This document shows, piece after piece, positions 223-46,490 of a stretch of DNA of 64,000 nucleotides (positions are counted from its first letter, which is position 1; each line of letters begins with the position of its first letter). Under the pieces are notes generated by a model. That model did not search any database. It was given only the letters and a program-made list of their open reading frames with translations, and was not told the origin of the DNA. The stretch covers positions 46,893,597 through 46,957,596 of the forward strand of contig CM074512.1 in assembly GCA_037379345.1 (NCBI GenBank), in the 5' to 3' direction. Source of the DNA: Perna viridis (Eukaryota). The position numbers were made by a program, and so were the translations under genes.

Positions 223-1287
223 TTAGCAGACAAGTATTATCCTTTTTCCGTTAATGTCACATAATCTCTTTACCTGAATGAGCAACATTTTTATATGGCA
301 GCAATATAACTTATATGTTTTATGTATTTAAACTGTGTTAGGAAAGTACTTTACAAAGGTTATTTTCAGAAACAGTGGTACTGTGTTGTTACAAGGTACT
401 GAAGATGACGGTCCTCGATATTTGGTCTGATCCACTATTGTTCAACTTTTGAATATATATTTGCTTACATATTAACTAATTTCTTATTACTTATACATGA
501 TTAGTATTATTTTTGTATTTTTGAACGAATTTCTTTCCCAAATATTTGGATTGACATAGAATTATTCTTTATTTCACTGACTGAGGCTCCGGTTAAGAGA
601 TAACAACAATTACATCATCCAATTTTCATCAGTTGTCGCATTAGAACTTTATATGTCCGGTTTGCCATTATGATGCATGCAACTCACACCGTCCCCTTTA
701 TGGTTTTTATACGAGTGCAGAGTTTTTTTTTATTATTTAGACAATTATGTCTTGCTTTTACCCAGTTTATTTTAGATGATTTGTCCTTGGTGTAAATAGA
801 ACTTTGGTAAACTTGACACTTTTCTTTACTGAACTAATTTCAAAGTCCAAAATGGGTTCAGTTTAGACGGGTTTCACTGCAAATTTCTGTGTTACATAAC
901 TAAAATCTACCACTGCCCATGCCTTTGCTTATTGAGCATAAAATCTGCTTGCAATTTGTCTACACATATATGTGCGCATATGTGCATGTGTTAGTCCCGT
1001 AAATATTTGTCAGCTTTAAAACCCTTTATGGGAATTATTCGAAATTCAGTATGGAGTTCAGCATTATATGCTGTTGTATTGTTGTACCATAAGAATGGCT
1101 ACCATCGTACTTATCCATCAACTTCCTGTTTATCAGAGTGATAACTTATACTTTATACGTTTCAATGCTTGTGATATGACCTTGTTATTTTTTATCTAGT
1201 TTTCAGTCTTCTTATGAAGGGAATAATGGAATTAGTACATAAATCATTATTGTACAGTTTTATTGCTATATGTACTACATATGGATG

Positions 1288-1397
1288 TTATAAAGATGCA
1301 AAGAATGATTTTAAAATGGCTTTGTATTCCTGTCCTTCATAATGTTTCGCAACACTATTTTCTCCTTGAACAAGTCCATCAATCATACATGACAAAG
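1288..1397 (-). CDS. DNPH1: DNPH1-like exon 4 (terminal)
   Basis: ACTTTCAG| then TLSCMIDG...HYEGQEYKAILKSFFASL*, which resembles human VLSAMIRG...DYEEGEVEALLDRYF. Confidence 0.88.
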
Positions 1398-4300
1398 CTG
1401 AAAGTAAAATTGACAAAGGTTTCATAATAATAATAAATATACATTCTTCTGATGACACAAGTCAATGTTGTTCAAATCAACATTACTCAAAAGGTAAACA
1501 ATTTTATTTAACTATGGAATGTAGACCTCAACCATTTTATTGTCTAATAGTTGATATTAGTAACCGATTGATTTCACGATCACATCAATATTTACACAAT
1601 CTAATTAAAATCAAATGATTTTTTCAGAATCCTGGCACTTTTCCTTTGAATGCTTTCACAAACGTGTAAGCTGAAATATGATTGGCTGATAAGGAAGGTG
1701 ATCCGAACAGAAAGTATAATCATGCGTTACTAGATAGATTCATATCAAGATGTGTACCAGATCTGGGTCTGAAAGTGAAAGACATAAGTGGAATGGATTT
1801 GTTTTACATTGATCATGTGCCAAAGCATATTCTACCGAGGTGCTTACCCGCTGACCTACGCATAATTAGTAAGGAAAATCGAATCTTTGAATATTTAATT
1901 AAAAAAGAAACCTTTCCCAAAATATCCTTGATTTGCCTCAAAGTACGCCTATTTCTCCTCTACGTAACTCAATAGTCAGACTTGTCAGATTATATTTATC
2001 AGATTTATCAGTCTGCAGTATTACAAATTTCGGCATTCCAATGTGAACACGTTGTGCTCCTCTGCTTGCTGAACTATTTCTTCACTCGTATGAGGCTGAC
2101 TTGATCCGAAAGAAAGAATATCGTTTAGCTAGATCCTTTAATCTCAATTTCCGCTATATAGATGATGTATTATCTTTAAATAATCCTAATTTGGGGCATT
2201 TGATACATCGCAGCTACCCCCGAAGAACTTGAGATAAAGGATACTACAGACACTGTGAAGTCAACCTCATATCTTGACCTACACTTAGAAATCGATGGTA
2301 AAGGAAAACTATTGACCAAACTTTACGACAAACGTGATGACTTTTCTTTCAGAATTGTCAACTTTCCTTTCATTTGTGGCAACATCCCTTCAGCACCTGC
2401 GAATGGAGTGTTCATATCACAACTCATACATTATGCCAGAGCTTGCCGAAACCACGCAGACTTTGTATCGCACTAGTATTCTGACAAATAGGCCTTTGGA
2501 ACAGGGTTATGTTGCTACAAGATTGAAGTCATCACTACAGAAGTTTTATGGTCGTCATCATGAATTCGTGGATTGTTATGGTGTATCCATCTGCGCCATG
2601 AAAACTGATTTGTTCAACGTGTCATAGTTTTCCCTTCCTCTTTCATCTACCCCGGACTTGACTTTTTATGAGCAACTCGGCGGGTGTTTCTAGAAAAGCA
2701 GAGGACGCTTGCCCTACCGATGCACTTGGTCCATGCTCCCAGTTTTTAGTGGAGTCCGAGTTGCTCATTTGCTTTTGTTACTTTGTATGTATGATTTTAG
2801 TTACTTTATGTTCTTTGTTGTGTATGTCTGTTTTCCATGTCTGGTCTTTGTCCCTGGATTACTGTCGTTTAATTACCGCTATAACCTTGGTTCCCTTAAT
2901 TACTCTTTCAAAACACATAAAACACTGAGGCTTCATTCCTTGTATCGCATATGGTAGAAACTCTCGGTGATGGATTGGGCTTCTTATTTCGATAGAGTTG
3001 GTTTTGAGCACTTCTTTCATACAACTAAGTTTTGAATTATATGATTTTCCCACACATTTGGTTCTAATGCTGTTGATGAGAAGTTGGCATTGAAACACTT
3101 GTACAGCATATTGAAATATTTACAATATATATAGATTGGTATTTTTTTGTATTTCATTAATAAACATTTCTAAATTCAAAACACTCACTTCTACCTGAGC
3201 TAGGTCTGAAAAGACAGAGTATTTTCTTATTCATTGAGGCAGCCCTACCAATTTCATATCCCACGCCTAGTGATGGTTGAGTTACTTCAGCAATCAACAC
3301 TGAAATTACGAAAAACAAGAAGATGGTTAAGTCCAATCACGGGACTCTCTATAAACAATGATTACAATGAAATAATAAAAAATTATACGAGATAAGACCG
3401 ATCAATGAGATAATTTAGGGTACCGAAGATGCAAAACATTGTAATATGAAAATGCATAATTTCAGCTTCAGGGGCGTATTTATAGAAGATAAAATCATGT
3501 TATTTAACAAGATAATTTTATTTTTTACACCACCATTATAATTTACATTTGAGACACGCATACACGAGGCGAAAGTAGTGCATTAACTGTCTATCTAATA
3601 TTTTAAGATCACATTTAAGAAAAACAGAGCAAAATCAATTCCAGCTTAAACCAATGAGTATAGAAACTTTACTGCGATGTATTAATTATTTTTCATGTGT
3701 ATAAATAATACAAATAAATGAATATTAAACATTAATAAAATTTTACGAGTGTTTTGAAAGATAGCATTTCTTACCATCACATGTCTTTAGGTTCTGTAAA
3801 CAGTAATCATGTGACCATCTACTTCCTTGATTTATTTCATCTGAAAGTCAATAAGTATTATTGTACGGAGACTTGAAGATTGGAACATTCATTTCAATGT
3901 ACTCGAATTTCCCCACTTATGTGATTGTGCTCTTGAGTCGACTGTAGACATTCATGTGACCACTATAATATCTGCGTTTAGATACAGGAAATATGAATAT
4001 TATATCCCCACCGATCATAAAACTAGCATATCAGAACTTTCATCAATTTAGATAAATTCAGTTCATGTTTTATATAATGATCATACTGAAAATAATACAG
4101 CTATTCAAAGACCCCCTGAGGTCAATGCTTTCAAATTTCGTGACTGTTGGAAAATTATTGTCATTAAAGAGGACCAAATCATAGTTGAATCATAGTAAAT
4201 CCACGCTATTAGAATAGTTCAAAAATTCACAGTTGACCAAATATACCACTCACGTTGTTTTGAAATAGGCACGATACATGATTGATTCGAAGGTTGTATG

Positions 4301-4461
4301 AAAACAACATTACAGTAGTAACTACCTTGAGCTGCTGATTTAGAACCAACAAACTCCGTGAGAACTTGACCATAATTGGTTTTTAATTCCTCTATTATTT
4401 CAGCATACAGATCAGCGTCATTTCGTCCACCATGTATACTCCCACAGAAGTATATCTTCAT
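1288..4461 (-). CDS. DNPH1: DNPH1/Rcl-like 2'-deoxynucleoside 5'-monophosphate N-hydrolase, 4 exons, 140 aa
   Basis: Exons 4461-4326, 3840-3775, 3299-3189 and 1397-1288, all GT-AG phase-1 introns, 423 nt in frame. Protein: MKIYFCGSIHGGRNDADLYAEIIEELKTNYGQVLTEFVGSKSAAQDEINQGSRWSHDYCLQNLKTCDVLIAEVTQPSLGVGYEIGRAASMNKKILCLFRPSSGRTLSCMIDGLVQGENSVAKHYEGQEYKAILKSFFASL*. It matches DNPH1 motifs YFCGSIxGG, AEVTQPSLGVGYE and LSxMI. Confidence 0.93.
2030..2909 (+). mobile_element. Naiad-type Penelope-like retroelement, 5'-truncated (RT C-terminal half and 3' tail), in DNPH1 intron 3
   Basis: GIPM*TRCAPLLAELFLHSYEAD, FRYIDDVLSLNN, ELEIKDTTDT..SYLDLHL, LYDKRDDFSF.IVNFPF, KFYGRHH; frameshifted; the ORF stops at 2627 with no C-terminal endonuclease. 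Confidence 0.88.
3189..3299 (-). CDS. DNPH1: DNPH1-like exon 3
   Basis: TTTCAG|...AGAA|GTGAGT, 111 nt, LIAEVTQPSLGVGYEIGRAASMNKKILCLFRPSSGR. Confidence 0.93.
3775..3840 (-). CDS. DNPH1: DNPH1-like exon 2
   Basis: TTTCAG|...GATG|GTAAG, 66 nt, DEINQGSRWSHDYCLQNLKTCD aligns to human GDRLIHEQDLEWLQQAD. Confidence 0.85.
4326..4461 (-). CDS. DNPH1: DNPH1-like exon 1
   Basis: MKIYFCGSIHGG...SAAQ, donor CAAG|GTAGTT; the track ORF 4219..4461 reads on into the intron. Confidence 0.92.
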
Positions 4462-7023
4462 CTTTCGACCAAGTACTTTTCTTTAATCTTAACAATAAGG
4501 ATATAAATCGATAAGGTACTTAGTCATGATAAGGAAATAATAGTGAAATACAGAATTCCACGGTTAAAGGTCTTAGATGAAACGTAGGAAAACAACGGAG
4601 TTATCAATATCCATTCAAAAGAAAACATAGTGGACCAGTTGTAAAGGTAGAGTAAGTGGTTTCTAATTTTTGTACGGTATTAATCAAACATATTATGCTA
4701 TATATTTGACATATGATATATAGCCCACAAAAAGAAGAAAACTAAGGACATACCAAATCGGTTGATAAATTTATATCCTCCTTGAAAATGAAACCTGACA
4801 ATCATTACTGGATACAAACACAAGGGCTTATTTATATTCATTGTTGCACTAATGTTTTACTGACGTTTTTCATCTGAAAATGATTAGTTTTTGGTTTCAG
4901 TTATCTATGTTGGTTTGAATTTCACCAAACCTTTACCAATCGTACAATTGAAAGAAATCTTATCAAAATATCAAAATCATAACATATTCATTCCTTAAGT
5001 ATAACATTTACATAAATTACACTTTACAAAGTTAAGACTTAACTTGCGGAATTAAGAAAATGAAATATATGTAACATATTGTTGACAAAAGTATTTAATT
5101 ATCTTCTATGATAAAATATATCTTGGAGGAAATTTCTCATGGGCGGCCTGAAAATGAGTCTAGAATAGACTGTTCAAAGATACACAATGCTATAATTTAC
5201 ACTTAACAAAGAATGAACGATACAAACGTATATAACGACTTTACCAGTTGTTATTTGTGGCATTGAATCTGTCTTTTTAGGGTGTTAATCCATTCCCCTA
5301 TTTTGCATATTAACGTCACTGAACATAGCGAACATGAATATAATTTCAATTTTAATACCTTAAAATTAGCACCGAATGTATGACTCATATTTCAGTCTTT
5401 TGAATATCATTAATCTTTTATTGTACAAATTCAATAAATGGGAGAGAAAATTATGTAATCTTTGCTATATTATAAGTTATTTACGTTTATATCCATAGAT
5501 ATGGAGATTTTTTACACCTGAAGTACTAAAGTACGGCCTGAGGCATTGGTCATACATTTTGTTTGATTTTTATGAAAAAATCATGCAAACTAATTAAACC
5601 ATTCAAGCAAGATATTAAAGGTCTGTATATATTAAATTGAAATTGAAATAAAAAAAAAAGTTTAGATGATATGTCATAGATGTCATAGACTAACAAATAT
5701 GGTCTATTGTGTAACATTTACATTGTACACCAAGAATGAACAAGTGAATTTATCTTTCCTTGATGAAAATTAACTGCTCTCTCTAAATAAGATATATGTC
5801 ATCTGCTTATTTTATCACTGCGTCATTTGGTTCATATGTAGTAGTTTGATATCTTTGCTTTTTCTCTTAATCCCTATTAACGCATGGACAATCTCAAATG
5901 TTGCAAATTATCTTTAACTCAGCTAACTTTTCAAACTATTAGTTTTTTTTATTGTTAATTTGTTGACGGGATAAAGGAGACGTTATTCAAAATCCCAAGA
6001 AGGACAACCGTCACACATCAGCTTTATTTCTCGTTATTCCAGGAATGTTAAAATAAATGCCGGTCATCAGGTGAACATACTGGCATTAATAAAGAGTGTA
6101 TTTTCTATGTTTCTGATAGGAATTTTATTTAAAAATGATCTCTTAAAAACAAGTATCACGTTATTTAGGTGGAAAACTGAAAATTCAACAGGACGACAAG
6201 TATTCCACTTGGCAAAACTTATAATGTATACTAAATCCAAGTAATAAATGCCTTTGTATCCTTATTTAAAATGTTAATAACTACTGCAACTGGGTTTCCA
6301 TGTTAACAAGTATGCATTAAAAATAAACATAATAGTGAAACATAACAAAATATCGAGAGCTGTAGTTTTCTGTGCCTTGTAAAAAACCAATAAAACCATT
6401 TTTGAAATGACCCTTAATGTAACTTTCGAAACAGGTTATCATTGGTTTATTGTAGATTCTCAGAAGCGAGAATTAACCAGCTAAGTTAAGAAAATCTCCA
6501 ATTAAAGGTCACTGGACAATAGTTTTTGTCAGATATCAGTTAAAGTTATCTCAAACGAGCATTTAAATTAAGATATCTTTTGAATACGACACTCGTGTGT
6601 CAAACGTAGGTGATTTCAATGAATCAATAATATGATATCGACGTCAAATGATAACGAAATGTGCCCCATTTTCGTTTCTTTTCTATGTTCCATTTCGCCG
6701 TATATTTCCATTTTTATAATCATATTTAATGTTTTATAATTGTCTTTTGTTCTTATAACGAATGTCTCTTACTTATTACACCCGTCACTATTTGTATCCA
6801 TCTATTGAAGTTTACAAAATATATTGATTTAAGACGATCATTGAAGAAATCCCTCTGTTTGTCTGTCAAGTGGACATGTATAAAGGAGTTAAATAATTTT
6901 GAAAAAAAAATATTCCTAGCAGAAAAATGTCGAAAAGTGTAAATAAACATCGTGTACGAAGTTACAACCCTAGATTAATCCTATGAGGAATGACCCGGTC
7001 AGGGAAAGCTATATTTTCAAATA

Positions 7024-8957: not shown

Positions 8958-10102
8958 CTGTTTACACCTTAAGTCTGAAAGTGGTTCGATTAAATCAGGT
9001 TAACTATACTTTAAAACCGAGAGGACTTAATACATAAGTATCATTAACCCGTTCAACATATCTATTTGCAACATTTTGAAGATAAAGGTACAATGAATAA
9101 GTCGTTTAAATACCAAGTGCAGTGGAAACACAACAGAAATTTTGGAATAATTCAAAAATACCCGGTAGTCTACTCCTGTAATTATATAGTTAAAATGCGC
9201 TATATATAGACAGCCTTAAAAAATCAATTGTCATCATCAATGAATTGTAACCCAAGAAATTTTGTATACTCAAATGAAAACGTATTTTAGACTAAAAAGA
9301 CCAACTTTCTTCGAATTCAAACCTCAGAAATGGGATGACTGTGACTTCCGTAAGCGGAGTAAACCACCATGAAAATCGTACAATGTATAGGGGTCGTCGA
9401 CGTTTGATTTATTTGATATTCTTTATATAAGTTTGACTTATCGTATTTAATCATTAGAACTGCCACACCAAAATATGAACGTATTTATATAGCAAAAAGA
9501 GCATTGTTAGTCAAATTTACCATAAGATAAACTGTAATCACATACATTAAACATATTTAAATTCCTACCTGTTTGCTTTGCCAGTCAGTAGTTATCGCCC
9601 TTTGTCTTTACTTTACACATTAAGAAGAAGAAAATATTTCTTCTTATTTCTGCTTACCATTGATCTTATAATATATTTTCTTATTCATCTGTTTCATCTA
9701 TCCAAAGTGCAAAATGTATAAATGATATCATTATTTGATAGTGAAACTATTTCCTTTGAGGTTATTCAATTAGCTTAGAGGTATTATTTTACAATGAAAG
9801 TTTGTGTTTGATTTGCCCTGAAAGTCAAACATGTAATTGAAATTAAGTTGTTATCATAACAATATCAGATATTGATTTGCATAGTTATTCAAACTATTAA
9901 CAAACATGTGATCCAAGAGAACAACACATGGCATTGCATAAACCTTGATATCATATAAAGTAAAATTGTACTTTTCACTTATTCAAAACAAAGAAAAATA
10001 TCTGAATCAAGATTTAAAACATACGCTACGCAAGAAAGTAAAGCTACAATTAAAAAACGAATATTTTAAACAAATAACATAATGAATAAATATATATATA
10101 TA

Positions 10103-10325
10103 GTCACAAAAACCAGACATGGAAAACAGACATACACATCAAAGTACATAAAAAAAACTAAAATAATACATACAAAGTAATAAAACTAAATGAGCACCTC
10201 GGACTCCACTAAAAAGTGGGAGCATGGACTAGGTGCACCGGTAGGGTAAACGTCATCTGCTTTTCTAGAAACATCCGCCAAGATGCTCCTAAAAAGTCAT
10301 GTCCGTGGTTGACGAAAGAGGAAAG
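10103..10325 (-). repeat. Naiad 3' tail copy
   Basis: Reverse complement of 2630-2850. Confidence 0.8.
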
Positions 10326-10969
10326 AATAAAATATGTTTATCACCAACACGTTTTCTATATACACGGGTTAAAGGTTAAAGCCAAAATGATATCAAGCTT
10401 TTTCATCATGGACACGTGATTTATTGATTGTTTACATTTCTCTGAAATTAACTGTTAAACTGTTAAATAAACCAATTGTGTTTTGTATATATTTCTACTG
10501 CTGTTAAAAGAATGTAAAATGAAAGCAAAAGAAAGCTCGCTATATTTAGTCCAGATGTTTTACATTTATTTCCATTCCACTAAAACTAAAGACGCGAAAA
10601 ATAAAGACCGACAAAAGTTTGATATCCCTACCATTATAGTAAATCGAAAAAACTCACAAAATATAAATTTCTTTGTTCTTTGTTTAAAATTAACTATGAT
10701 AATACAATGATTTTAACTAATTTTTTGTACATATTTGTATTCAAGGGAAGCAAACTGTACCAGTATTTCAAAAAGCGGTTCTCTCGCCAGGTGCTTGCGG
10801 ACTTTTCCGCTTTACATATATCACTAGTTAATCTACGATACGTGATCATCAAGCCATTTATTTGTATAAAAAGTTTGTTTATACATATAAAACATTATAT
10901 CATGTTATTTGCTTTTTGATTTGATCTGTGTTAAGACCATCTATTCCAGTACAAAAATTCTGACTATTT

Positions 10970-12150
10970 GAAAATTATCAAACCATGTTCCATCACTTTC
11001 AATGATATATTTGACTACAACGATGACGAACCCCATTGTACTATATCAAAATGAGGTATTAAAAATTGCAAACATGCAACATTCTTATAACCGACTCTTA
11101 CTTCTCTAGTACCCTTACAAACAAACCCTTCCATACAAGAAGTCACGATGACTTAAGTTGCAAATCAACGAACTTAATACATGGATTAGAATGCAACTTA
11201 TGCGGTTTAATATAGGTCGGTGAAACACAAGAACGATTAAACAAAAGAATGTGCTTTCGGGAATAAATACCACCAAATTCCCGATAGTTTATCAACATTT
11301 TAATCAACAAGATCATTCAATCCTCTCTATAAAAGTTCGTATTTTAGAAAAAAATTACCATCCTACGAACAGCCCCGTTCTAAGTAAAAACTATCGTGGG
11401 GAAAGACAGGAGTACTGGATACGCAGACTAGGTACTGCAATACCTTATGGATGCAATCACAACATCAAAAGTATAGAAAACCTTTCAAGCCAATATAACA
11501 AAAGCTTAAATGTGATGAATTTATTTGACAAAGCTCCAAGACGGGAAAGGAGTCATGGCCATCGCCACTATACGTCACCTAAGTTACATGATGTCTCCAT
11601 AGATGGTCTCCTTCCTTTCATACTAAAACCTCTTGGACTTCATCACATTATAACAAAACTCTATTCTACACCTTTCACTCTACTACACTCCCTTTACAAT
11701 ACACGTCTTGACACTCCTGTTTCTGACCCCACCTCAACATTGTACAGACTTGTTGCCATCATTTTGGATATTGGTTTCCACAGACTCTTTAAACCAGTTT
11801 GTGTGAAAAGTCTAGATGAAGAAAAACGATCATTTCTTCCACTACCGTTTGTCAACAAAGTTATAGATGCAATTAATTTGGCTAAAATCCTCCATCACAA
11901 AAACGTTACCAACAAAATTCCCCCATATTTCAAAGACAAATACATACCAATTATTTCATATTCATCTAGTCCATGCTCCCAGTTTTTAGTGGAGTCCGAG
12001 TTGCTCATTTGCTTTTGTTACTTTGTATGTATGATGTTTTGTTATTCAATGTTCTTTGTTGTGTGAGTCTGTTTTCCATGTCTGGTCTTTGTCACTGGAT
12101 TACATTCTTTTGATTACCGCTCTAACCTTGGTTCCCTTGATTACTCTTTC
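10970..12150 (+). mobile_element. Internally deleted Naiad-type element: N-terminal GIY-YIG endonuclease and linker joined directly to the 3' tail
   Basis: K*GIKNCK(T)C...LSCKSTNLIHGLECNLCGLI*VGETQERLNKRM...VYQHFNQQDH...EYWIRRLGTAIPYGCN...PIISYS, then an abrupt switch at ~11965 to the tail seen at 2725-2909. Confidence 0.85.
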
Positions 12151-12744
12151 AAACAATTTACGAGTTATCTTTTAGAAAAGTGAAGATCTCTATTTTGTGT
12201 TGACATTCTATATTTATGCATTATAAATATATCGTACGATAATGTTTTCATCTCCTAGACAGTATGATTTAAGGAGTTTTCTTTGTCTCATCTATAATTT
12301 CTAACATTTCAAGTTTGTGAGCAAAATATTATGTACTTTCACCACTTCCATTTTATCTGAAGTCGACTTCGTCCATCTCAACTATATAAACAATTTGTTT
12401 TTAATTACTTTTCCTATTCATTTCCTATATTACATCGGACATCACATGGGCAACTCTCCTTAAAGTGGTCAGAAGGAATGATAATTACATCGCCAGACGA
12501 GGGAAAATCCATGATAAAAAAAAAGCCGGGAACACCATCAACTAATTGTTACAGAGACTTACACTTAAAATATTTTAAAACATTTCCCAGAAAAACAAAC
12601 AATGTAAGTCATTATCTATTTCTTCAAACTTATTTTATTTTTTTTTATACCATACTTTTTTGTATGTAAGTCATGCGGTGAGCAGTCACTTTTATAAAAA
12701 GACCGACCGGCAACATTCCTCGGATCAATACTAGGATATTATCT

Positions 12745-12850
12745 CCTATGTATAGTGGAATTCGAGTTGTTCATTTACTTTTGTTACTTTGTATGTTTTA
12801 TGTTCTTTGTTGTGATTGTCTGTTTTCCATGTCTGGTCTTTGTCCCTGGA
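12745..12850 (+). repeat. Naiad 3' tail fragment
   Basis: AGTGGAATTCGAGTTGTTCATTTACTTTTGTTACTTTG...CATGTCTGGTCTTTGTCCCTGGA. Confidence 0.75.
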
Positions 12851-16067: not shown

Positions 16068-19000
16068 CTAAAAAGACAAAAAATAAAAATGCTGTATTCA
16101 AAGACACATATAGAGTTACTTGTAATTGTTTGGTTATATTGTGAACTCTGTTTAACACCATAGAAATATTTCATGAAATTATTACAGTGGTTTTAAAGGC
16201 GAAATAATGAAGACTTGAGAGTTCAGTAGTTACAGAAAGGCCAACACGGGTGAAAAAAAAGTAATAAATAGTATACTAGTATATACTGCACTTGACTTTT
16301 TGTCCCCAAATCGACCACAGATGCAGTTCGATGCAACGGTCGACTTGAAAGGCAGCAACGTTTTTTTTTGTTTTGGTTTGTTTTTGTTTTGTTGGTTTTT
16401 TTAAATTTTATCTCGTTGTAGATGTTTCGTAAACTACCAATTTGAATTTCGTGCTTCAACAATGAGATGGAAGTCAAAATGTTGAAGAAAACAATGATAT
16501 ATCAAAATAAATCAGTAAATAAAAAAGACTTAGTTTTAAGTCCAGCTCGTCTTTATTTACCATAAGAAACATCAAATATTTCAACTCTATTTCAGTTGGG
16601 CATATCAAAAAAGTTTTTTTGATAAATAAATCATAAAACCGATCATGACAAAGCCCAAATTATAATACCAATATTTTAGGTTTTCGGATTACAACACATT
16701 TTAATTCATACCTATAGTACTAAAAGCTTGATTTTGTATTATAAAAGAACCTATGTAAGAAAGAGTAACCAAGGGAACCAAGATTCTGGCAGAAATCAAA
16801 AGAATGTAATCCAGGGACAAAGACCAGACATGGAAAACAGACACACACAATAAAGAACATAAAATAACCAAAATAATATATACAAACTAACAAAAGTAAA
16901 TGAACAACTCGAATTCGACTAAAAACTAGCGGCATGGACCAGATGCACCGTTAGAAGAATAAGCGTAAAAAGTATAAAGAAGTGAAATAAGACAACGGCA
17001 TAATACATATAATTCATGTAGTCCGTCGGTTATAACACAATAATGTAACATTTCTGCGGTCCTCACCATCACCTGATTGGGAATGCCTTCTTCGAATATG
17101 ATTTTTGTGTATGTTGACCGTCTTTATTCTTTTATTTTTGTCATGTCTTGGCCATTTTACATGGATTTTGACGTATTTGATTGTCTCATTAGAGACACAC
17201 ACATCGGTATTTTTGTGCCGACATCTACTTCCACATGTCATAGATGTTTTCCCTCTTACACAGACATGACATTCAACGGACTGCACGCTGAGCGTCTTGC
17301 ACGAAGCATGAACTGATCATCATGTGTAGTTTATTGTTACTTTGTGTTTCATGACCTATTCTACAAGATTTTTGTAGTTTTGTTTTGTATTCCAGGCTTT
17401 GTTTTCCTCTTTGAACCCTAAAAACGTTATGTATTTGGATATCTACAATGCGGCTCAATTTAATAATTGAACTTACATTATTATCTAATGTCAAACTTAC
17501 CTCCACTATTTAAATAATTAACCATTCTACACTTATCGGGCATTTCGTCACTTCCGTCATGGCATTGTAACTTTTGATCGCAATGATATTCTTCAGGTAT
17601 GCACTGGCGACCACTTGTGCACATGAATGTCGTTTCGTTGCATAATGACAGATCAAAGTTTCCTGGTAGAGCTACAAAATAGTTTACAGTTGATTAAAAT
17701 GCTTTTGATTATATTTCAACATTTCTTTTCCATGCAATGCGTTTTATCTACACAAGATTATAACAGACAGGAAAGAATTTAACTGCAGCAATACGTGGGA
17801 TATATGATTTATGATTTTTTTTTATTACAGGATAAACATTAATTTCAACTTATGTCATCAAAAATAACGACAAAAATTAGCCCGTGGTACACTAACGATA
17901 AGTTCCGAGTTTGAGGAACAAATTTAACCTGTGAGGTCGGTAAAAATGGATAAACTTATTTATGGCATCAGAAATAAGACCGTCATTTGTCTATGACTTC
18001 GGTCATATGTTTATCACCATTTAACAAAGATTTTCCTCTAAGGACGTCATACATGAATTGTTCCTACTTACAAAGTTATACGCTCTTTGCTATCCGGTAA
18101 AGGTAAACAAAATGTATTTTTAAGGAATCATAATTCAAATCTAATTAGAATATCATATGCTAATAAGATTGGAATTACAATTCCTAAAAAAATACATAAT
18201 GCCTATTTCGTGCACTATGATAAGTTGTTCACCTTTTACGACCTCTTTACAACAGTGTAAATTTCATGTACAAATCGTAAACAACATGGCTACCATCGAG
18301 TTTAGAGGTTTAAAGCGGTATTATATGCTTTATACCATTCATTTTCGGCATTCTTTATTCAAAGCAAAAATTTTGAAAGAATATAGTTACCATTGTTTTT
18401 TCCAGAATTTATGGATGTGTAAAGTCGGACCATTCACGCACAAACCTTCGGACTTTTATTTGTTTTGTGAGTGAATGGTCCGATTTTACACATCAATAAA
18501 TTATGGAAAACAGTGTTTAAACTTATAATAAATGGATTCGACCATTTACCAATAATTTTTCTGTATTTTACAAGTATATTTGTACTATATGCACATACCT
18601 GGACAAACAATATTATTGCATACTTTTTCTTCCCTTCCTAGTCCTTCACATGGTTTGCCATTTTCAGATGGCTCAGGAGCTATACACAGTCTTGTTCTAG
18701 CAGTACTTCCAGAACCACACATTTTACTGCAGTCACTCCATGCCGTCCACATGGTCCAGCCACCGTGAACTGATAAAAAAACAGTAGGTCATTATAACAG
18801 AAGTGTCTTGAAGAAGACAAATATATAAAGATTGTAAAATTATTATCATATTTATATGACGAACGAGACGTCTTTTTTTTTAACTATCTAATTTCAATTC
18901 ATTTGTAGTCTGAGGTTTTGAAACGTTGCATTAATATACATATTTTTTGTAATGAGCTTTAATGTCATTGATAAACGTTTGCACTGAATTATAGATATCC

Positions 19001-21383
19001 AGTCTAAACAAAAGTCGATGTTAATTCAGATGATTCCAAAATCGATACGACGTGTCCATTTTACCTTGAGAAATAAAATATTAACGTGAAATGAGCATTA
19101 AGCGACATGTATCTATGGTTGAATGGGCGCACTTATTCCATGTTCAAAGTGCTTCATGTAAATGAAATTCAAGTTTCTCAATCAGTTTTGAATGTGCCTC
19201 TTTTAGATTCTTTATATTATTTGTTGATTGTCTACTTTGATTTCCTATTCCTCGTTCTGTTTACATTCACTTTTCACACAGGAAAAATTGCAACATATGT
19301 GGTCATATGTTTTAAAACATCTGGAAGCATATGTTTAGGACCGATATAGAAATACATGTTTTTTTTTCCTATAAAATACAATTGTTTTAAAAAAATATCT
19401 GCAAGTAATACATTTTTCATACATTATGCCCTTTAGAAGATACAAACTTACAAAATGATTTTTTTCATGAATTTATTTGTTAGTCCTTAACATTTATTTC
19501 ATATGCTTTTCATGGCGGTCCTAAACATACTAAGACACAAGAGAAACATACGTTTTTCTTGCCTGATGAGTTTATTTTTCTCATTTTTTAAATACTATTT
19601 TAATATTTTTTTATTTTGTCTTGAAAGTAACGTATTTTTATGGGTAATTTCTGGGAGAGTTTGAACTTTAATAACCGATAAAGAGGTTCAAATATATTAT
19701 GTACATACCAAATTCTATAAACTAATATAAGAATTAAATTCGTCAATCTATCAAATCTAAGTTTTGGAGACATCGACTGTAAATTTCAAGACACTTAAAG
19801 ACATACTTGAACGTAGGACCATAAAGTAGCTTTTGTCAAAGTAATATTGAACTATCAGTAAAAGAAACAATCCAAGTTTAAGTGCTAATTGATCCTTTTG
19901 ATCAAACCAGAAGTTCGGTATGATTAGGGTAATAATTAAACCAAATGTTGTTTACATATTTCCTGATGAGAATACAACCATATGTAAGTAGCTAGAATTT
20001 AAATATTGATTCACTCTCAACAGTCTTTTAAGTCGCCCTGAGTATGAAATATTTATTCTACAGATTTGATTTTTTAAAATTTAAACAAGTAATGATTATC
20101 ATTGTTTAAAACTATTTACATTTTTTTTAAAAATTCTCAAACAGCAAAATACCCTTCATAAAAACCAGTAATACATGATTCAAAATAGATTTTGATATTG
20201 AATATAACATTTGACAATATAATTTACCGCAAACACATTGTGTTCTTTCTTTATTTCGTCCATTGTATAAAACGTAAATTTTAGGTCGAGCTGTCTTTAT
20301 TTTAAAGTTACTCTACAGAGAAGTTCATTGATTAAAATAAGTTTCAATTATGGTCAGAAATTTTGGAGAAATCCATATAGCAGTCTGTATCAACACTCGC
20401 CCCAATTCACCCTTAAAATCAGCGGACCTTGAGCTGATATCGGTGTTTCCCGAGGAAACTGTATGCCATACAGATATTGCGAAGTACAAATGTTCGCTTT
20501 GTATCATACGAAAAAATTGCTGTATTATTACAAGTGTATTATAAAGTTACAAATAGTGAAATTTGTATACGTTTACCTGGGCATGGGAGTTTAGTCCAAC
20601 ACTCCGCTATCATACTGTAGGTATAGTTAGAAACTCTACCATTTTTATAAATCCAGTTTTTGTTTCTCTGGATTGAACCATATCCACATGTAACTGAACA
20701 CTTTGACCATTCTCCCCAGCTTCCCCACTCCCCATAGTCACTGCTGGCAAGGTTTGCTAATGTTACTTGAATTTAAAGAAATAAACATAAGCATATTGCA
20801 TTATAAAGATTTAATTAACTTGTATCCAAAGCAAAAGAGACGAAATACTGCATTTAAATAAACGGCATTTTGCAAGTGAGAAAACATCAAATGAGGGAAA
20901 ATTTGTTTTATAATTAAGGCACCATAAATCGGACATCGGTTTAATAGATTGATCAATTTTCGGTTTGGAACATCAAGCGTTAATCTAGAAACATGATCTT
21001 TTAAAAAACAAGAAAATCAATACTTCATAAGATATTTATAAAACAAATGCATGATAAAACATCTTTACCGCAAGACGCGAAGGGTCCATTTTTTCTAACA
21101 CATTTTTAGTTGTCAGAAATTCCTTTAATTGGATGCATTTATCCATTATTCATAAACCATTTTATCATTTCTGGAGATCACATGAAGGTTTAGCGTGTAC
21201 AGCTCCATTCAAATTATATACAGAAATAAAGTGCTTAATGTTATTATGACAATATCAAATAGTAATAGTTGACGATGTCCAAAGAGAGGAGAAACTAGAC
21301 TTAGGGGAGACAACTTATCGCTTTTGCTCGTCTTAATTTCTTGAAATTTTAGTTAGTGTTTTACTTTGACCAAAAACAAAAAC

Positions 21384-26233: not shown

Positions 26234-26630
26234 CTATCATTAGAACTGTGTTACGTTAGGTCTCCATAGAAATTATTTGATTATCATACGTGTTATTTCT
26301 TGCCACTGTTTCGGATATTTTAGGAAGAAAATTCAATATTGCAATATATTTTTTTATTTAGATTGCAATATACTTTTTGGGTATATATGTATTAATATTG
26401 TGGCAACAATATTGTCTGAAGTAAAGCACTTCTTTCAATCACAATAATATACCTGTAGATACGAATGTGTTAATAAGTGGTCTTGTTACGAGTCTTACCT
26501 TGAGAAGACATACCCTGAATCATACAGGCATCCGCCATGTGTATATTAATGCCATGTTAACCATATCAACACTGAAAATAGAAAATAAGATTGTTGTCAT
26601 CAATTATATCAAATTTATATACACGTGTTT

Positions 26631-26915
26631 AAAGAGTAATCAAGGAAACCAAGGTTATAGTGGTAATCAAAAGAATGTAATCCAGGGACAAAGACCAGAC
26701 ACGGAAAACAGACATACACAACAAAGAACATAAAGTAACTAAAATCATACATACAAAGTAACAAAAGTAAATGAGCAACTTGGACTCCACTAAAAACTGG
26801 GAGCATGGACCAGGTGCACCGGTAGGGTAAGCGTCCTCTGCTTTTCTAGAAAAACCCGCCGAGTTGCTCATAAAAGTCAAGTCCGGGGTAGACAAACGAG
26901 GAAAGGAAAACTATG
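26631..26915 (-). repeat. Naiad 3' tail copy, nearly complete
   Basis: High identity to 2622-2909; the track ORFs here nearly duplicate those at 2668-2957. Confidence 0.88.
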
Positions 26916-27639
26916 ACTAAAGACAGTTTAGAAACAGATGTTATTTACTCAATACAAGTATATAGTAAACTGACAGGTGTTACACATGATTTAATGGTAG
27001 TACTTAAATGGTTTATTGTACAGGAAATATTGATGTGAAGTGGTATTGGCTACTATCAATTAATCTCGCAATATATTGTATTTGTATCAACACACAAAAT
27101 TACTTTATTAACATGCGAATTTATACATGGTATTTTCATGAATTTTGCTATTTAAAAACGTTTATATTTTTCACCATCTGAAATGCATGAGTTCGCTTAT
27201 CACACACGAACTTATAAACGAATGGTTATGAACAAAGGAAATATTGTAATAATGATATCCCTTCCTCGATAGTCATTAACCAAGATGACTTAACATAAGG
27301 GTCTTTCAGAAGTATTTGCACGACCATAATGCATTATGGAAATACTAAACCATGTGTTCCAACGTAATATGAAATTGGTAATAAGCAGAAGCTCTAGTTC
27401 GAATACATAAGTAAACTACTGAACTCATTGTTTTGGCATTCAGTGAAAGCTTTTGAATTAAACTACATCGTTTACCCTATATAGCATATCATTAAAAAGA
27501 TATACCAAATTAATTAAAGCGAAGCATTTTATAGTGTATTCTATGTATTGTTTTTTCCTTAATTTTAAATCCGGAAAAGGGTGGAAATTGTTTCCGTATT
27601 TAACACAGACGTCAGCAAAACACCAACACGTCTGCCATC

Positions 27640-29695: not shown

Positions 29696-30899
29696 ATGAG
29701 TTTCGGATCATTCCTTCTATTGAATTTAATTGCCGCTGTGTTCAGTGCTGGGAAAGAAGGGCAATATGTGAAAGACCTTTGTAAATGTAATATGCAGATA
29801 GGTACGTTTCATATTTTCTTTGCTTTACAATTTACCAAGTTATCAACTGACCTATATTTGTTCATGTAAATGTCTTTGCATTGGTGCAAAAGATGAATAT
29901 TTGAATTTCTCATGTGACATATCTGTGACCATTCTTCGTGTGAAACCAAGTTTAGAAATAAGCTTTAACTTATTCGCAGTATCAAGTAGTTCTTTTGACT
30001 TTTAAATATCAAATAATTTTATATTTACTACGTTGCTGATTTTAGAAAGGACCAGTGCCGTGATAGCGACAGTACGACATACTTTAGATCATTTGGAAAA
30101 GTCGCTATCTTCATTCAAAACATGTGGTATGTAATATCATACAATTATCTACATAAACTACCTAAAATTATAACATGTATTATGGTAAAATAAATAAAAT
30201 CACAACAGTGTATCTTGTCTTGTGTATATATATATATTTACAAACCGGAAATTTCATAATTTCACAACAATGAAATAAGCGCTGTTTTATTATATTCACG
30301 AGGAGTAATTAAACAACGTTTTAAGAGAGAGGCGATCAAACAATCCAATCCTGGTTCATATCCGAATCTCAAATTTACTAAAATAGTTCTTTGAAAGTCC
30401 CAACAAATTTACAATATACTATATACTAAGACATTTTCTTTACTTGTGTATATGTTAATATTTTTTAGTGTATTATATGTTGTAGAACGATGTTTGACGA
30501 ATGCACACAAGGAAAGAAGATATATTTTTCAGCTTCACTATCAAATACTCGATCTCTGAGCGGTAGTCAAACAGTCATTTTCGATTATGTGAACGAAAAT
30601 AGCGGGAAATGCTATAATCCAAATACCGGTAAATTTACAGCAACAAAACAGGGGGTGTACTATTTCACATGTTCATTTATATCAAGTAGTGGTTCAAAAA
30701 CATTACATCTTAGACTGGTCAAGAACAAAAGCACTATTGCTAGAGCAACAGGGTATAATGGTTCACACAGCACAGGAGTTTTGAGCGCCGTTGCGTATTT
30801 AAGGTTGGTGACACAATTGAAGTTCAACATTTTCCTGGAGCCAGTACACAGGCGATTTATGGATCCCATTGGTCTCGGTTTGTTGGATATATGCTGTAA
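29696..30899 (+). pseudogene. Secreted C1q-domain-containing (C1qDC) gene with two frameshifts (pseudogene or assembly error)
   Basis: Exons 29696-29801 (signal peptide MSFGSFLLLNLIAAVFSA), 30046-30126 (short helical stalk) and 30486-30899 (gC1q: IYFSASL...VIFDYVNENSGKCYNPNTGKFTATKQGVYYF...GDTIEV...SRFVGYML*). Needs +1 nt near 30510 and near 30802. TATA upstream, AATAAA at 30927. Confidence 0.85.
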
Positions 30900-31181
30900 T
30901 ATATTTATGCCAGTCTTAAAATATACAATAAATTTTGACTTTATGATTGTTTGGTTGTTTTTTTACGGTTCATTTTCTCATACTTCATGAAATTATATCA
31001 CGCATCTTTTAAGGTATATTTCACAATAAAAAAAGTACTATAGGCTTAAAATTCATATAATGCATGTAACCTGGCCTGCTGCAACGTATAGTAATTCCTT
31101 GTATGTGTTTTACTTGAATATATTTATGGCCTGGCTTACTCTGAACATATTTACCTCGAATTTTTCTGCTATTCATTTTGA

Positions 31182-38522: not shown

Positions 38523-41500
38523 TAATTTTACAAGGATGCCTAACCCTCTGCATTCAAGATATTTCAGCGTATTTAGTTTTAAGCTTTAATGTAATAATAT
38601 ACCGTTCTTATTATATTTGAAGTATTACGTAATGGAAAAACTGAAAAATACTTTATTTTGCGAGTCAGAAATGATTCACATAGTAGTCAAAACAATGATA
38701 CATTCTTACTGGAATAAGAAAAAATATCTTTTAAAAGTTATAGGGGGAAAAGGCTTTTTTCAAGACTATGCCGAAAATTACTTTTCTATCTAGATGTTGT
38801 ATTCATAGCCGCCCCTGGAAACATCTTACTAATTAATATATCACATCTAACTATCTTGACTTCATCGTGACCTCTTAAAATAGCGAAGAAATCAACTTTA
38901 CCAAAGGTTAATCCCCAATGAAGATAAAGAATATTTTCGAACGCATAATAGCGTTATAAATCTAGCTGAAGATGCAATACAAATTCATATTATCCAAGAC
39001 AATGGCTTTTAAAATCCTTTATATTCACAAAACCTGTGTTTAACTGATTCTAAAAACTTCCATTTTAACACGTTCTGGTAATAACCATTCCGTATAAGAT
39101 GCCTTAGTGACACCGCATCCTCAATCCGATTTTTCCACTATTACCTTTTTACAACTTGTAATATTGGTTCAAGATAATTATAATCATGGCAGTAATTAGT
39201 TACACTTTCTTAATCTTATATATTAATGGTTTCATTTTATAATGTAAAATGGTTCCTTTTTGTGTAATTATGCGGTGGAAATGAAAATATACACATTCCA
39301 ACAAATTGTGAAAAAAATCATTATTTGTTATTATAACAAATTCGATATTGTAGACAATATTCATAACATAATAATTTTCCCTAGATTACTCTTCAAACAA
39401 AAAAGGACATAAGTAACATTTATCATGATAATCAACAGTATCAGAGATGAATTATAGTGTCTCTCTACATTCACCCAAAACAAATGAAGAAATCATTGCA
39501 AAATGATTTAAAACAAAAACACAAACAAGCAAATGATATACAGAGGTAAATAATGAGCAAGATAAAAAAAAATAGAAGAAGAAGAAAAACAATGAAAAAT
39601 TTTAAGTTGAACACATAGCTACTTGAATATTTTTTTTTAACGAAAACTTAAAAAAATAATGTTTATATCGTGGATTTCATAAACAAAATATTTCATTTTT
39701 TTCGCATTTACATTTCTGATTTAGAACGTACTATATGCAGTTTTAACAAGGTATCTTATGCATATTATTCATACATTCATGAATTTGTCTAGCAACAATA
39801 TTTTCCAACTAAAGTTTAACTACATTTTTGCTTCAGTGTGTAAACATGTCAACTTGTTATCAGTGTTGGTGGTTTTTTTTGTCGTTCAATTTTTGCGTCA
39901 TTTTAATTGACCAATTAATATGTTATCGATTGTCCTTAACAATCTGTTATCGTGATATACAGCCAAAATGGTAGATCGAGAAAGAAACGATCGTATTGAT
40001 TTTTTCCAGAAGAGTTTGGAATTCCATCAACATGACTTCCGGTTTTATCAATACAATAAATTTGAATACATCTTATATAATGTAACTATGTACAAACTAT
40101 GTTTTTGAAAAGGTGATATTTACAATCAAGCTATTTTTCTTTTCTGTTGACTCAAAACTTTATATTCTAAACATAAATTGTAAAACCATAAATTGCGCAG
40201 AGTGAGTCCATTATTGTTATATTTTAAATATACAACAGTAGTAACAAATTCCTGAAAACGATGTTTGAATTGCACAGTTTATAACGGAAAAGCTTTTGCA
40301 CACAGCTTAAATGTCAACAAATGTTAATCAAATATAAAAGAATAATAAGACTACAAGTATTTAACAATACGAAATCACTGAATTTATTCTTGAACATCCG
40401 AAACATGATTTTATCATTTAAAATCTCTTCAGTATATGTAAGCAGAGGAATTCGTTTTATACACTATGGATGAGTAAACAGAAAATAAAGTTGTAGGGCC
40501 ATTAGGCTATGAATATTGTCTAAAATATCAACTTCGTTATAATAACACATACATTGTTCATAACATGATAATATTAGAAAAAAGAATGTTATGTGGATTA
40601 GTTCATTGTAATGACGTCATAATAGGGTCACAAGCATATATCATTTAACAAAAATGCTGAGAAATGTAAATTTTGTTGTTTTATTGGACATATTTACATC
40701 AAGAAAGTAGGGTATGTCCACTCCAAGAAACAACTTTATATTTTCACATATGATAAACTATGATATAAAGATAGTATTCACTAAAAAAAATGACCATAAT
40801 ACTGACCAAAAAGTGCGAAATTGACAGAAATGGTGAACTTTTCTATTCTATTGTTCTTTGAATGCAAATATTATCTGAAATCTGAAATCATTGAAATCTT
40901 TATGTTTTCCCATTTGTGATGGATTCAAATCTCCAAATTCACAATTAAATCTTTCCAACACATTATGGTTAATTTTAAAAAATTGTATTTTAGGCCAATG
41001 AGATACTTTATTGCCTCTTTCCCTTTTGATAAAAATTAAAAAAACAAAAACAAACCAAAACAAAAAAACAAAAACAAAAACAAAACAAAAAACAAAACAT
41101 TCAACTTTCAAACTGTAAACTAATGAGATGTTATTATAACGATTAAGGCAAGACAATAAGTACTTATCAGGTTATATTTATTTAATTTCATTGAAATGTT
41201 TCCCAAATAAATAACAAAAAGATTTATTTTAATAATTAGTAATAAAGTGATTTTTCACATTTTTTAAATTATAAATTAAAATGAATATTTCAGAAAATTG
41301 GTGTAAATTTATCAATAAATTTAATGCTTAATTACATGTAAGTAAAACCGCATGTAAGATCAGTTTAAAATTTAAAATTGTTGAGTCAAAATCTCCATTT
41401 TCTTATATTAAATGAATAAAAATATTCATAAGTTTTAAGTATAAACACAAATGATTTAAATGAAATAAGTTCGCAAATAAACATTGATAAATTGAATTAT

Positions 41501-46100: not shown

Positions 46101-46290
46101 CACCTGAAATTGATTATTTCAGTGTTGTCTCAATCATATTTAGGATGCTCAGAAAATAAAAATAGGATTTGGTTCTTGGTACCTTTCCATTCCTAATTTA
46201 TTTGTAAATTATATAGCATAGATTTAACGATCTCCGCTTGGATATAAGTCTCTGTGCTACTTTGTTCAAACAAAATGTTTGACACAAATC

Positions 46291-46490
46291 AAAGAGTAAT
46301 CAAGAGAACCAACGTTCTAGCGGAAATCAAAAGAAAGCAATCCAGGGACAAAAACCAAACATGGAAAAACAGACATACACAACAAAGAGCTTTAAGTAAC
46401 TAAAATAATACATAAAAAGTTACAAAAGCTAATGAGCAACTCGGTCTCCACTGGAAGCATGAACCAGGTGCATCGGTAGGGTAAGCATTC
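46291..46490 (-). repeat. Naiad 3' tail copy
   Basis: AAGAGTAATCAAG...ATGAGCAACTCGG...CATCGGTAGGGTAAGC. Confidence 0.8.

Follow-up and report, generated by a model that had tools for sequence, protein, structure and literature searches.

A mussel paralogue of the nucleotide N-hydrolase DNPH1 with conserved nucleophile and hydrolytic-base residues and a largely replaced base pocket

Only recently was the true substrate of DNPH1, a drug target in cancer, identified. The metazoan protein, also called Rcl, is a 5-hydroxymethyl-dUMP N-hydrolase represented by human (8QHQ, 8OS9) and rat (4FYH) structures, and D80 is a member of its catalytic triad and tunes E104 (DNPH1 mechanism papers). The base-reading residues are H56 and R30, the latter in a salt bridge with D73; the R30A and H56A exchanges cost only about 6- and 11-fold, and E55, which is exposed to solvent and has no evident contact within the complex with substrate, makes the second step about 150-fold slower when lost (PMC10603095). 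R30, H56 and D80 assist an anionic leaving group, with a Brønsted slope of -1.0 (PMC12751057), S98, S128', G31 and G100 have roles in the 5'-phosphate pocket (PMC10483697), and the phosphate serines and E104 bind ribonucleotide inhibitors too (PMC3834327). In DmtZ from Z-genome phages Asn takes the place of D80; the enzyme acts as a hydrolase on dAMP at 2.6e5 /M/s, drops about 100-fold when given the Asp, and also catalyses transfer; in transferase sites, a Pro keeps water out (PMC12884076). Among the (hm)CMP N-glycosidases MilB and BcmB, MilB retains Arg23 and Asp78 (PMC4081090).

A further member of this group is encoded on the minus strand of the window, a 64,000-nucleotide stretch of Perna viridis DNA, and is called the odd copy here. 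Its gene has 4 exons with 423 nt of coding sequence (140 amino acids plus stop) and 3 GT-AG introns (Table 1). The initial annotation had described an intact 4-exon DNPH1 homologue, and this structure was reproduced in contigs from 4 sequencing runs, one from each of four studies, which are guessed to be RNA, none being recorded as such. Contig depth in these runs is not informative on expression level or tissue. No differences fell in the coding exons among 40 of the 44 difference rows against the run contigs, and transcript-type contigs extend past 4489 into further upstream sequence. A different exon 2 containing the triad Asp had been named as a finding that would speak against an altered active site. 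Between exons 1 and 3 there are 7 open AG..GT segments, none of which was such an Asp-bearing exon: the H/Y-x-x motif region was present in only 2 of them, the real exon 2 and a 6-nt shorter form, H/Y-x-x-D occurred in 0/7, and the splice joints fit the exon with Cys.

Table 1. Features of the odd DNPH1 copy, in positions of the window; equivalent human DNPH1 residues follow the equals sign, and the runs are guessed to be RNA.
Feature	Position	Strand	Remarks
5' untranslated part of exon 1	4462..4487	-	in-frame TAA ahead of ATG
Coding exon 1	4326..4461	-	residues 1-45 + 1 nt; Y4 (=Y24, codon 4452-4450), H10 (=R30, 4434-4432), E36 (=E55, 4356-4354), F37 (=H56, 4353-4351); one-residue insertion near 28
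Intron 1	3841..4325	-	485 nt, GT-AG, phase 1; joint 3840/4326 in contigs of 4/4 runs
Coding exon 2	3775..3840	-	66 nt; S52 (=D73), S55 (=I76), Y58 (=Q79), C59 (=D80, codon TGT at 3802-3800), N62 (=W83, 3793-3791)
Intron 2	3300..3774	-	475 nt, GT-AG, phase 1; joint 3299/3775 in contigs of 4/4 runs
Coding exon 3	3189..3299	-	111 nt; phosphate-binding S77 (=S98) and G79 (=G100), nucleophile E83 (=E104, 3255-3253); also encodes dimer helix
Intron 3	1398..3188	-	1791 nt, GT-AG, phase 1; joint 1397/3189 in contigs of 3/4 runs
Coding exon 4, through TAA stop	1288..1397	-	S107 (=S128, donated to partner subunit's phosphate site), C108 (=A129), M109 (=M130), D111 (=R132)
AATAAA, likely polyadenylation signal	1259..1264	-	transcript-type contigs stop between 1229 and 1265

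By descent the odd copy belongs to the DNPH1/Rcl gene family within the nucleoside 2-deoxyribosyltransferase superfamily (PF05014). Residues were mapped via the stand-in sequence P0002 (118/140 identical and sharing H10, F37, C59 and N62), which was aligned to PDB chains and matches PF05014 with 54.6 bits (Pfam cut-off 28.8). The odd copy is predicted to have the flavodoxin-like DNPH1 fold: a structure model of P0002 (pLDDT 92) superposes on human DNPH1-hmdUMP (8qhq) with a Foldseek TM of 0.91 and an rmsd of 1.8 Å. With metazoan DNPH1/Rcl it shares the predicted fold, about 47-50% identity and the residues Y24, E55, S98, G100, E104, S128 and M130, and it lacks the triad Asp and both base-reading residues. 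MilB/BcmB and the NDT/PDT transferases have the Pfam family and catalytic Glu in common with the odd copy but are far more distant (E 0.04-0.9 versus 1e-35 for DNPH1). NCBIfam yielded no usable family, and an Atlas search with Mytilus P0056 returned PF05014 clusters only.

Whether a canonical copy coexists had been named as a check, and one does: the same contig carries, at a distance of 12.4 Mb, a DNPH1 gene with intact R30, H56, D80 and W83; the unusual residues are thus not those of a single-copy mollusc orthologue. Both copies have all three intron positions and phases in common (66-nt exon 2, 111-nt exon 3, every intron in phase 1), and both were found in four Mytilus species. The Mytilus orthologues of the odd copy, named "putative 2'-deoxynucleoside 5'-phosphate N-hydrolase 1" (XP_076097177, XP_063430085, XP_071159922, XP_052057562, CAC5387706), are 67-68% identical to it, fall in the same clade and likewise have Cys at D80 and Phe at H56, but carry Q at R30 (H in Perna), K at W83 (N) and S at A129 (C). 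The literature searched yielded no description of a difference between the two Mytilus copies; since databases name both identically, one of the two is probably misannotated. The odd-copy clade comprises 10 sequences from five lineages that are 56-73% identical to one another, all with the open frame kept, and has a support of 99/97 after removal of 35 pocket and loop columns. An insertion of a single residue close to position 28 occurs in 10/10 clade members and in 4/150 other sequences. Identity between the odd copy and its Mytilus orthologue amounts to 95/140 versus 109/138 for the canonical pair, and the odd copy evolves faster than the canonical copy against 6/6 outgroups (p<0.05 in 3). 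From these comparisons of sequence, the odd copy is a long-kept mussel paralogue of DNPH1 that exists alongside the canonical copy. A duplication predating the split from unionid mussels was not upheld, as Potamilus P0061 falls within the clade with all columns (99/96) and outside it without the pocket columns. No further clade members were found among the best 150 of 1371 matches in a search of 50% representatives, and a metagenome scan for orthologous coding DNA yielded just 2 distant loci of 25-31% identity. A PF05014 profile search of the genome gave zero matches, not even the odd copy itself, because the exons are short; more distant copies could escape this search.

According to the mapping, Y24, E104 and the PSLG loop are kept and the exchanges R30H, H56F, D80C and W83N are real, as had been read from the sequence initially; D80 falls on C59, as given by the D80A and D80N mutant chains 8rpt and 8rps. 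The exchanges relative to human DNPH1 also include A129C as well as D73S, I76S and Q79Y, the last three being additions to the initial annotation, as is the retention of E55 as E36 in 10/10 clade members. The nucleophile and its partner are present, E83 and Y4 aligning with E104 and Y24, and the 5'-phosphate pocket is complete (S98, S128', G31 and G100 correspond to S77, S107, G11 and G79). The dimer interface residues are conserved. With Cys in place of D80 the triad Y24-D80-E104 is incomplete, and H10, S52 and F37 occupy the sites of R30, its salt-bridge partner D73, and H56.

To what extent the exchanges are clustered is evident from 63 family-conserved columns scored against 150 unfiltered relatives. 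Every clade member keeps 49/63 of these columns, among them Y24, E55, S98, E104 and S128, and all sugar, phosphate and catalytic columns that pass the conservation cut are kept (7/7: Y24, G27, E55, S98, G100, E104, S128), Y24 in 9/9 clade members covering the site. Eight of the 63 columns are lost in every member, and six of these are base-side residues of the literature (R30, H56, I76, D80, W83, A129); the resulting 6/8 base-side columns lost versus 2/55 others (Fisher p 1.1e-5, with non-independent rows) agrees with the proposed clustering in the base pocket. Q79 is one of the two others, and its rat equivalent, Q68, also contacts base substituents (PMC3834327). At the D80 site, Cys, two base changes from Asp, is found in 9/10 clade members and Asp in 140/150 other sequences. 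To our knowledge, no active family member with Cys at this site has been described. The replacement residues vary by lineage (H/Q at 30, F/Y at 56, S/A/T/V/L at 76, N/K/F at 83, C/S at 129), a pattern equally in keeping with a loosened pocket and with a fixed new specificity. The change of SAMIRG to SCMIDG had been counted as part of the rewiring; its A129C component stands, and R132D is ruled out as part of it, the site being variable, with R132 missing in 26/124 pocket-intact sequences and Pinctada P0088 having SCMIDG together with an intact pocket. Similar pocket changes occur in 20/150 other sequences, mainly from invertebrates.

Based on these patterns, cleavage between base and sugar in a 2'-deoxynucleoside 5'-monophosphate has probably been retained by the odd copy, likely for a base other than 5-hydroxymethyluracil. 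By analogy with human DNPH1, S98, S128' and the glycine loop, all kept, would hold the phosphate, Y24 would position E104 and favour 2'-deoxy sugars, E104 would attack C1' with formation of a covalent intermediate, and E55 would activate the water that releases it. The replaced residues are those that, according to the mechanism papers on the human enzyme, stabilise the pyrimidine anion as it departs and supply its proton (R30, H56, D80) and those that shape the base pocket (I76, W83, A129), besides D73. The charge of R30 and the acid of D80 are gone, an aromatic residue is gained at position 56 and the residue at 76 is smaller or equal, so the likeliest substrate base would be one that departs readily or in neutral form. 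In place of D80, the Cys would supply a hydrogen bond or a weak acid. As E55 is the base for the second half-reaction, its retention favours an active enzyme, and since it makes no obvious binding contact and its loss slows the second step, this retention fits selection for turnover. Only 2/33 highly variable and 14/77 non-conserved columns are invariant in the clade. Chance would nevertheless keep a non-conserved column invariant in 6-18% of cases, and E55 by itself is therefore no proof. The more specific reading that the odd copy is a 2'-deoxynucleotide N-glycosidase for a base that departs in non-anionic form, for instance a purine or an alkylated base, is the one we favour, with an about even chance of being right. 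A purine or an N-alkylated cationic base, of the 7-methyl-dGMP type or dAMP-like as in DmtZ, is our guess for the substrate. DmtZ resembles the odd copy in its DNPH1-like fold, the kept triad Tyr and Glu, the replaced Asp and the monophosphate pocket; in contrast, it has Asn and not Cys, is a phage enzyme of separate origin and has a demonstrated activity, the odd copy being known from sequence.

With a canonical copy in the same genome the ancestral job would be covered, and the odd copy might, as a guess, rid the pool of a further class of non-canonical nucleotides, with 5hmdUMP left to the canonical copy. Taken further, it could be the second nucleotide-pool sanitiser of filter-feeding mussels, a Tyr-Cys-Glu N-glycosidase that acts on an alkylated deoxynucleotide or a modified purine, recovered perhaps from modified DNA in the algae, bacteria and phages of the diet, and one of several independent DNPH1 pocket rebuilds in marine invertebrates, the others being those of unionid and venerid bivalves, sea hare, tubeworm, acorn worm, sea urchins and horseshoe crabs; we regard this proposal as doubtful. 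If true, these rebuilds would together expose non-canonical nucleotides that animals must clear. A natural paralogue with the nucleophile and the hydrolytic base but without leaving-group machinery offers a direct test of the specificity residues in the DNPH1 fold, and its substrate would point to a modified nucleotide of animal cells that has gone unrecognised, or else provide nucleotide chemistry with a new biocatalyst. As a single domain of 140 residues, the protein lends itself to assays beside the canonical copy from the same genome.

The strongest competing explanation, somewhat unlikely but deserving real weight, is that the odd copy binds nucleotides with little or no catalysis, perhaps as a regulatory subunit that joins canonical DNPH1 by the dimer helix and lends S128'; if inactive, the odd copy would be an ordinary pseudoenzyme. 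The joint loss of all three leaving-group residues, their lineage-dependent replacements and the conservation of the dimer helix with the S128-M130 extension are compatible with it, and a binder would retain E104 and the phosphate serines because these also bind nucleotides, as in the ribonucleotide inhibitor complexes. It accounts less well for the retention of E55, with no obvious binding role, in all ten members and of Y24 wherever covered, and for a Cys two base changes from Asp in nine of ten; moreover, DmtZ indicates that the Asp is dispensable in the same fold. An improbable reading is that of a back-up copy, a slow hydrolase of wide range whose pocket is under relaxed selection and which has no specific new substrate, as the faster evolution, the variable pocket residues and the recurrence of pocket changes in mostly invertebrate relatives might suggest. 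Relaxation, however, would strike conserved columns broadly, whereas the losses cluster on the base side, and the open frame has been kept across five divergent lineages.

Still more improbable than such a back-up copy is a deoxyribose-5-phosphate transferase, and not a hydrolase, exchanging one base for another in salvage or in the synthesis of modified nucleotides. E104 and Y24 would permit its covalent intermediate and DmtZ performs both reactions, but the water-activating E55 is retained and an incoming base requires polar contacts, which are the ones lost. An immune effector draining canonical dNMPs during infection is very improbable: apart from a C1q-domain exon 26 kb away, it has in its favour an analogy with TIR and Thoeris proteins, which have a similar Tyr-Glu site (PMC11204291), and against it stand two copies per genome with no tandem expansion and nearest neighbours that are a FAM69-type kinase and an LDLa/TSP1 gene; for the antiviral role raised initially, nothing was found pointing to one. 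A pseudogene, an assembly error or an ordinary single-copy mollusc orthologue can be dismissed almost entirely, given the agreement of the spliced contigs of four studies with the coding exons, the intact orthologues in five lineages and the canonical copy in the same genome.

A metal site or disulphide formed from C6, H10, C59 and C108 was also considered and was dropped because H10 and C108 are not conserved in Mytilus. Within intron 3, at about 2030-2916, is a retroelement-like sequence that is broken and highly repeated.

The minus-strand DNPH1 homologue of the window (hereafter the paralogue) has three introns, all GT-AG and all in phase 1. Splicing was followed in Logan contigs from 4 of the 23 listed runs, belonging to four studies, whose RNA nature is only guessed; all 4 runs contain two of the predicted joints, and 3 of them also contain the third. 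Exons, introns and contig joints agree with the complete four-exon ORF described in the initial annotation. The coding exons are free of differences among the 40 rows shown (of 44), and a stop codon lies in frame upstream of the ATG, so that the paralogue has no N-terminal extension. A different exon 2 bearing the Asp had been named as a refutation of the altered pocket; none of the 7 open exon candidates lying in the stretch from exon 1 to exon 3 has the H/Y-x-x-D motif, and the altered pocket of this DNPH1 homologue is a real observation.

Whole-protein analyses were performed with the Logan protein P0002, which is identical to the paralogue product at 118 of 140 positions and shares with it H10, F37, C59 and N62 (paralogue numbering). 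P0002 matches Pfam PF05014 with 54.6 bits (cut-off 28.8) and aligns with the human and rat DNPH1 chains (E about 1e-35); C59 is fixed as the D80 position by the mutant chains D80A and D80N. The AlphaFold model of P0002, obtained with a 50-row input alignment, has a pLDDT of 92.2 and a pTM of 0.89, and in a fold-level comparison it matches human DNPH1-hmdUMP with TM 0.91 and rmsd 1.8 Å. By descent, the paralogue is a DNPH1-family protein, and the named proteins closest to it are from Mytilus, in keeping with a mytilid mussel as host.

Searches of the same genome with exon 1 and with exon 3 each returned two loci, the paralogue and, at a distance of about 12.4 Mb, G000:C2:34.50 Mb, where a canonical copy with the motifs GSIRAG, TEHV, HDRDMAW and LSAMIRG coexists. 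It has four exons, the inner ones (66 and 111 nt) and the intron phases being as in the paralogue. Its splicing is predicted and its exon 2 was chosen by motif, from 6 AG..GT candidates filtered for H/Y/F-x-x-D, a choice backed by the identity of the whole predicted protein to Mytilus trossulus P0340 at 109 of 138 positions. The two copies within the host genome are identical at 70 of 138. Both copy types are present in each of M. galloprovincialis, M. trossulus, M. edulis and M. californianus, equal lengths of the contigs that carry them suggesting that they lie on one chromosome, and M. coruscus has the paralogue type. The Mytilus isoform X2 of the paralogue-type copy (P0003, P0058, P0173, P0176), in which exon 3 begins four residues late, is probably a defective splice form.

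In a tree from the full alignment of 59 rows and 141 columns, whose bootstrap had not fully converged, nine sequences form a group at 99/96, as do eleven once P0060 and Potamilus P0061 join. When 35 pocket and loop columns were taken out (54 rows, 105 columns), ten sequences including the paralogue formed a clade at 99/97 with Potamilus P0061 outside, and the canonical copy grouped separately with Mytilus P0340 and P0106 at 100/98, the deep nodes being without resolution. The ten rows represent five lineages (the window sequence with P0002; P0055; P0184/P0185; four Mytilus sequences; P0060) with 56-73% identity between them, and a profile search with the clade brought up no additional member in its 120 best of 7952 matches. 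The presence of Mytilus among these lineages indicates that the duplication is at least older than the split of the Perna viridis host from Mytilus.

The alignment comprised 162 sequences, namely the 10 clade members, 150 unfiltered others and two near-duplicates (P0057, P0058) counted in neither group. Across the others, 63 columns reach a conservation of 85% or more; 49 are kept in every clade row, 6 partly, and 8 are lost throughout (R30, H56, I76, Q/R79, D80, W83 and A129, in human numbering, and position 113). Loss affects 6 of 8 base-side columns versus 2 of the remaining 55 (Fisher p 1.1e-5, a descriptive value, the base-side list having been taken from papers, partly prompted by the finding, and the rows sharing ancestry). 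Asp or Glu at D73, the salt-bridge partner of R30, occurs in 137 of 150 others versus 0 of 10 clade rows. The clade keeps Y24, G27, E55, S98, G100, E104, S128 and M130 (P0185 has no N-terminus). Its D80 site holds Cys in 9 of 10 rows and Thr in P0060, and the other new residues vary by lineage. Among the substitutions listed initially, the losses of R30, H56, D80 and W83 are borne out, whereas the change at R132 is not diagnostic, Arg being found in only 98 of 124 pocket-intact proteins. Judged by its residues, the paralogue lacks two defining features of a 5hmdUMP hydrolase, the complete triad Y24-D80-E104 and the base-reading R30 (with D73) and H56, and is not to be classed as such an enzyme.

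According to the published work, D80 of human DNPH1 is the proton donor to the leaving base, R30A and H56A mutants show losses of about 6-fold and 11-fold, and E55, exposed to solvent and without obvious ligand contact, drives release of the covalent intermediate by about 150-fold (PMC10603095). The base departs as an anion (Bronsted slope -1.0), which R30 and H56 stabilise, and D80-H56-R30 form a proton relay (PMC12751057); I76, W83 and M130 surround D80, phosphate contacts also being described (PMC10483697). Purine N6 substituents are touched by rat I18, R19, F64, I65 and Q68 (PMC3834327), 2'-deoxy specificity accompanies the Tyr-Glu pair (PMC11204291), residue contacts are described for MilB (PMC4081090), and 5hmU occurs in DNA of dinoflagellates and phages (PMC8565368). 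Phage DmtZ, with Tyr-Asn-Glu, is specific for dAMP (2.6e5 /M/s), an activity reduced about 100-fold by N77D (PMC12884076).

In the paralogue, the sugar-phosphate residues and those for both chemical steps are retained and those serving an anionic pyrimidine gone, a combination that points to a glycosidase for an easily or neutrally leaving base; we give about even chances to an active 2'-deoxynucleotide N-glycosidase, the base being most probably a purine or an alkylated one. An alkylated base that is cationic can leave without a general acid. A non-catalytic binder or regulatory subunit is a weaker possibility, favoured by a rebuilt pocket that is not uniform across the clade and by faster evolution of the paralogue than of the canonical copy. 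That the gene is a relaxed back-up seems unlikely, and a transferase is more doubtful still. An immune effector is very improbable: no evidence was found for the antiviral role raised in the initial annotation, the copies numbering two and forming no array, and the genes nearby being unrelated. An artefact is hardly credible.

Altered pockets, defined as absence of D80 or of at least two of R30, H56, D80 and W83, occur in 20 of the 150 others (P0061, P0066, P0075, P0085, P0097, P0129, P0143, P0153, P0335, P0339, P0347, P0353, P0356, P0360, P0371 and others). Among the named sources are Potamilus, Mercenaria, Dreissena, Aplysia, Lamellibrachia, Saccoglossus, Priapulus, two sea urchins, two horseshoe crabs and one fish record, whose gene model may be wrong; in Potamilus, Mercenaria and Dreissena a further copy has the pocket intact. 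Pocket rebuilding is thus recurrent in invertebrates, which makes the mussel case less unique and the family more interesting. In the literature searched, mostly outside subscription papers, nothing relevant on a DNPH1 paralogue in mussels, bivalves, molluscs or invertebrates was listed, the hits for mussels and other molluscs being on killifish and sea cucumber. Cys likewise occupies the D80 site of P0356, which is close to a Porites protein. In Patiria miniata (P0187/P0334), two DNPH1 domains lie in a single chain, perhaps through fusion or through the merging of gene models; the first is canonical, and in the second R30 is replaced by Thr and H56 by Asn, with the one-residue insertion of the mussel clade.

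Features of the window and related loci
Feature	Position	Strand	Remarks
Paralogue, coding exons	4461-4326, 3840-3775, 3299-3189, 1397-1288	-	423 nt, 140 aa
Canonical DNPH1 gene, same genome	G000:C2:34502202-34508323	+	R30, H56, D80, W83 intact
FAM69-type kinase domain (PF12260), two exons	L005:4053-5137	+	about 5 kb before window start
Repeat in paralogue intron 3	2030-2916		
Related copies	near 10100-10340, 11960-12155, 12750-12850, 16760-16950, 26625-26917, 46290-46490, 62030-62330, 63900-64000		
Stop-free frame, 280 codons	11224-12063	+	ends inside a repeat copy
LDL-receptor class A and two thrombospondin type 1 domains, exons	17484-20772	-	domain matches
C1q domain exon	30469-30987	+	E 4.7e-15
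Neurotransmitter-gated ion-channel transmembrane region	40851-41171	-	weak match, under Pfam cut-off
Tandem repeat, period near 70 bases	55720-56180		self-comparison

Intron 3 of the paralogue contains a broken and highly repeated sequence of retroelement-like character, which has a YIDD-type motif and resembles a Penelope-type element; it had no match in Pfam and in NCBIfam only a reverse transcriptase at E 0.097. The 280-codon frame, with no match in Pfam or NCBIfam, may belong to this mobile element. The intron 3 repeat is very deep in RNA-type contigs. The FAM69-type kinase exons and the paralogue are oriented tail to tail.
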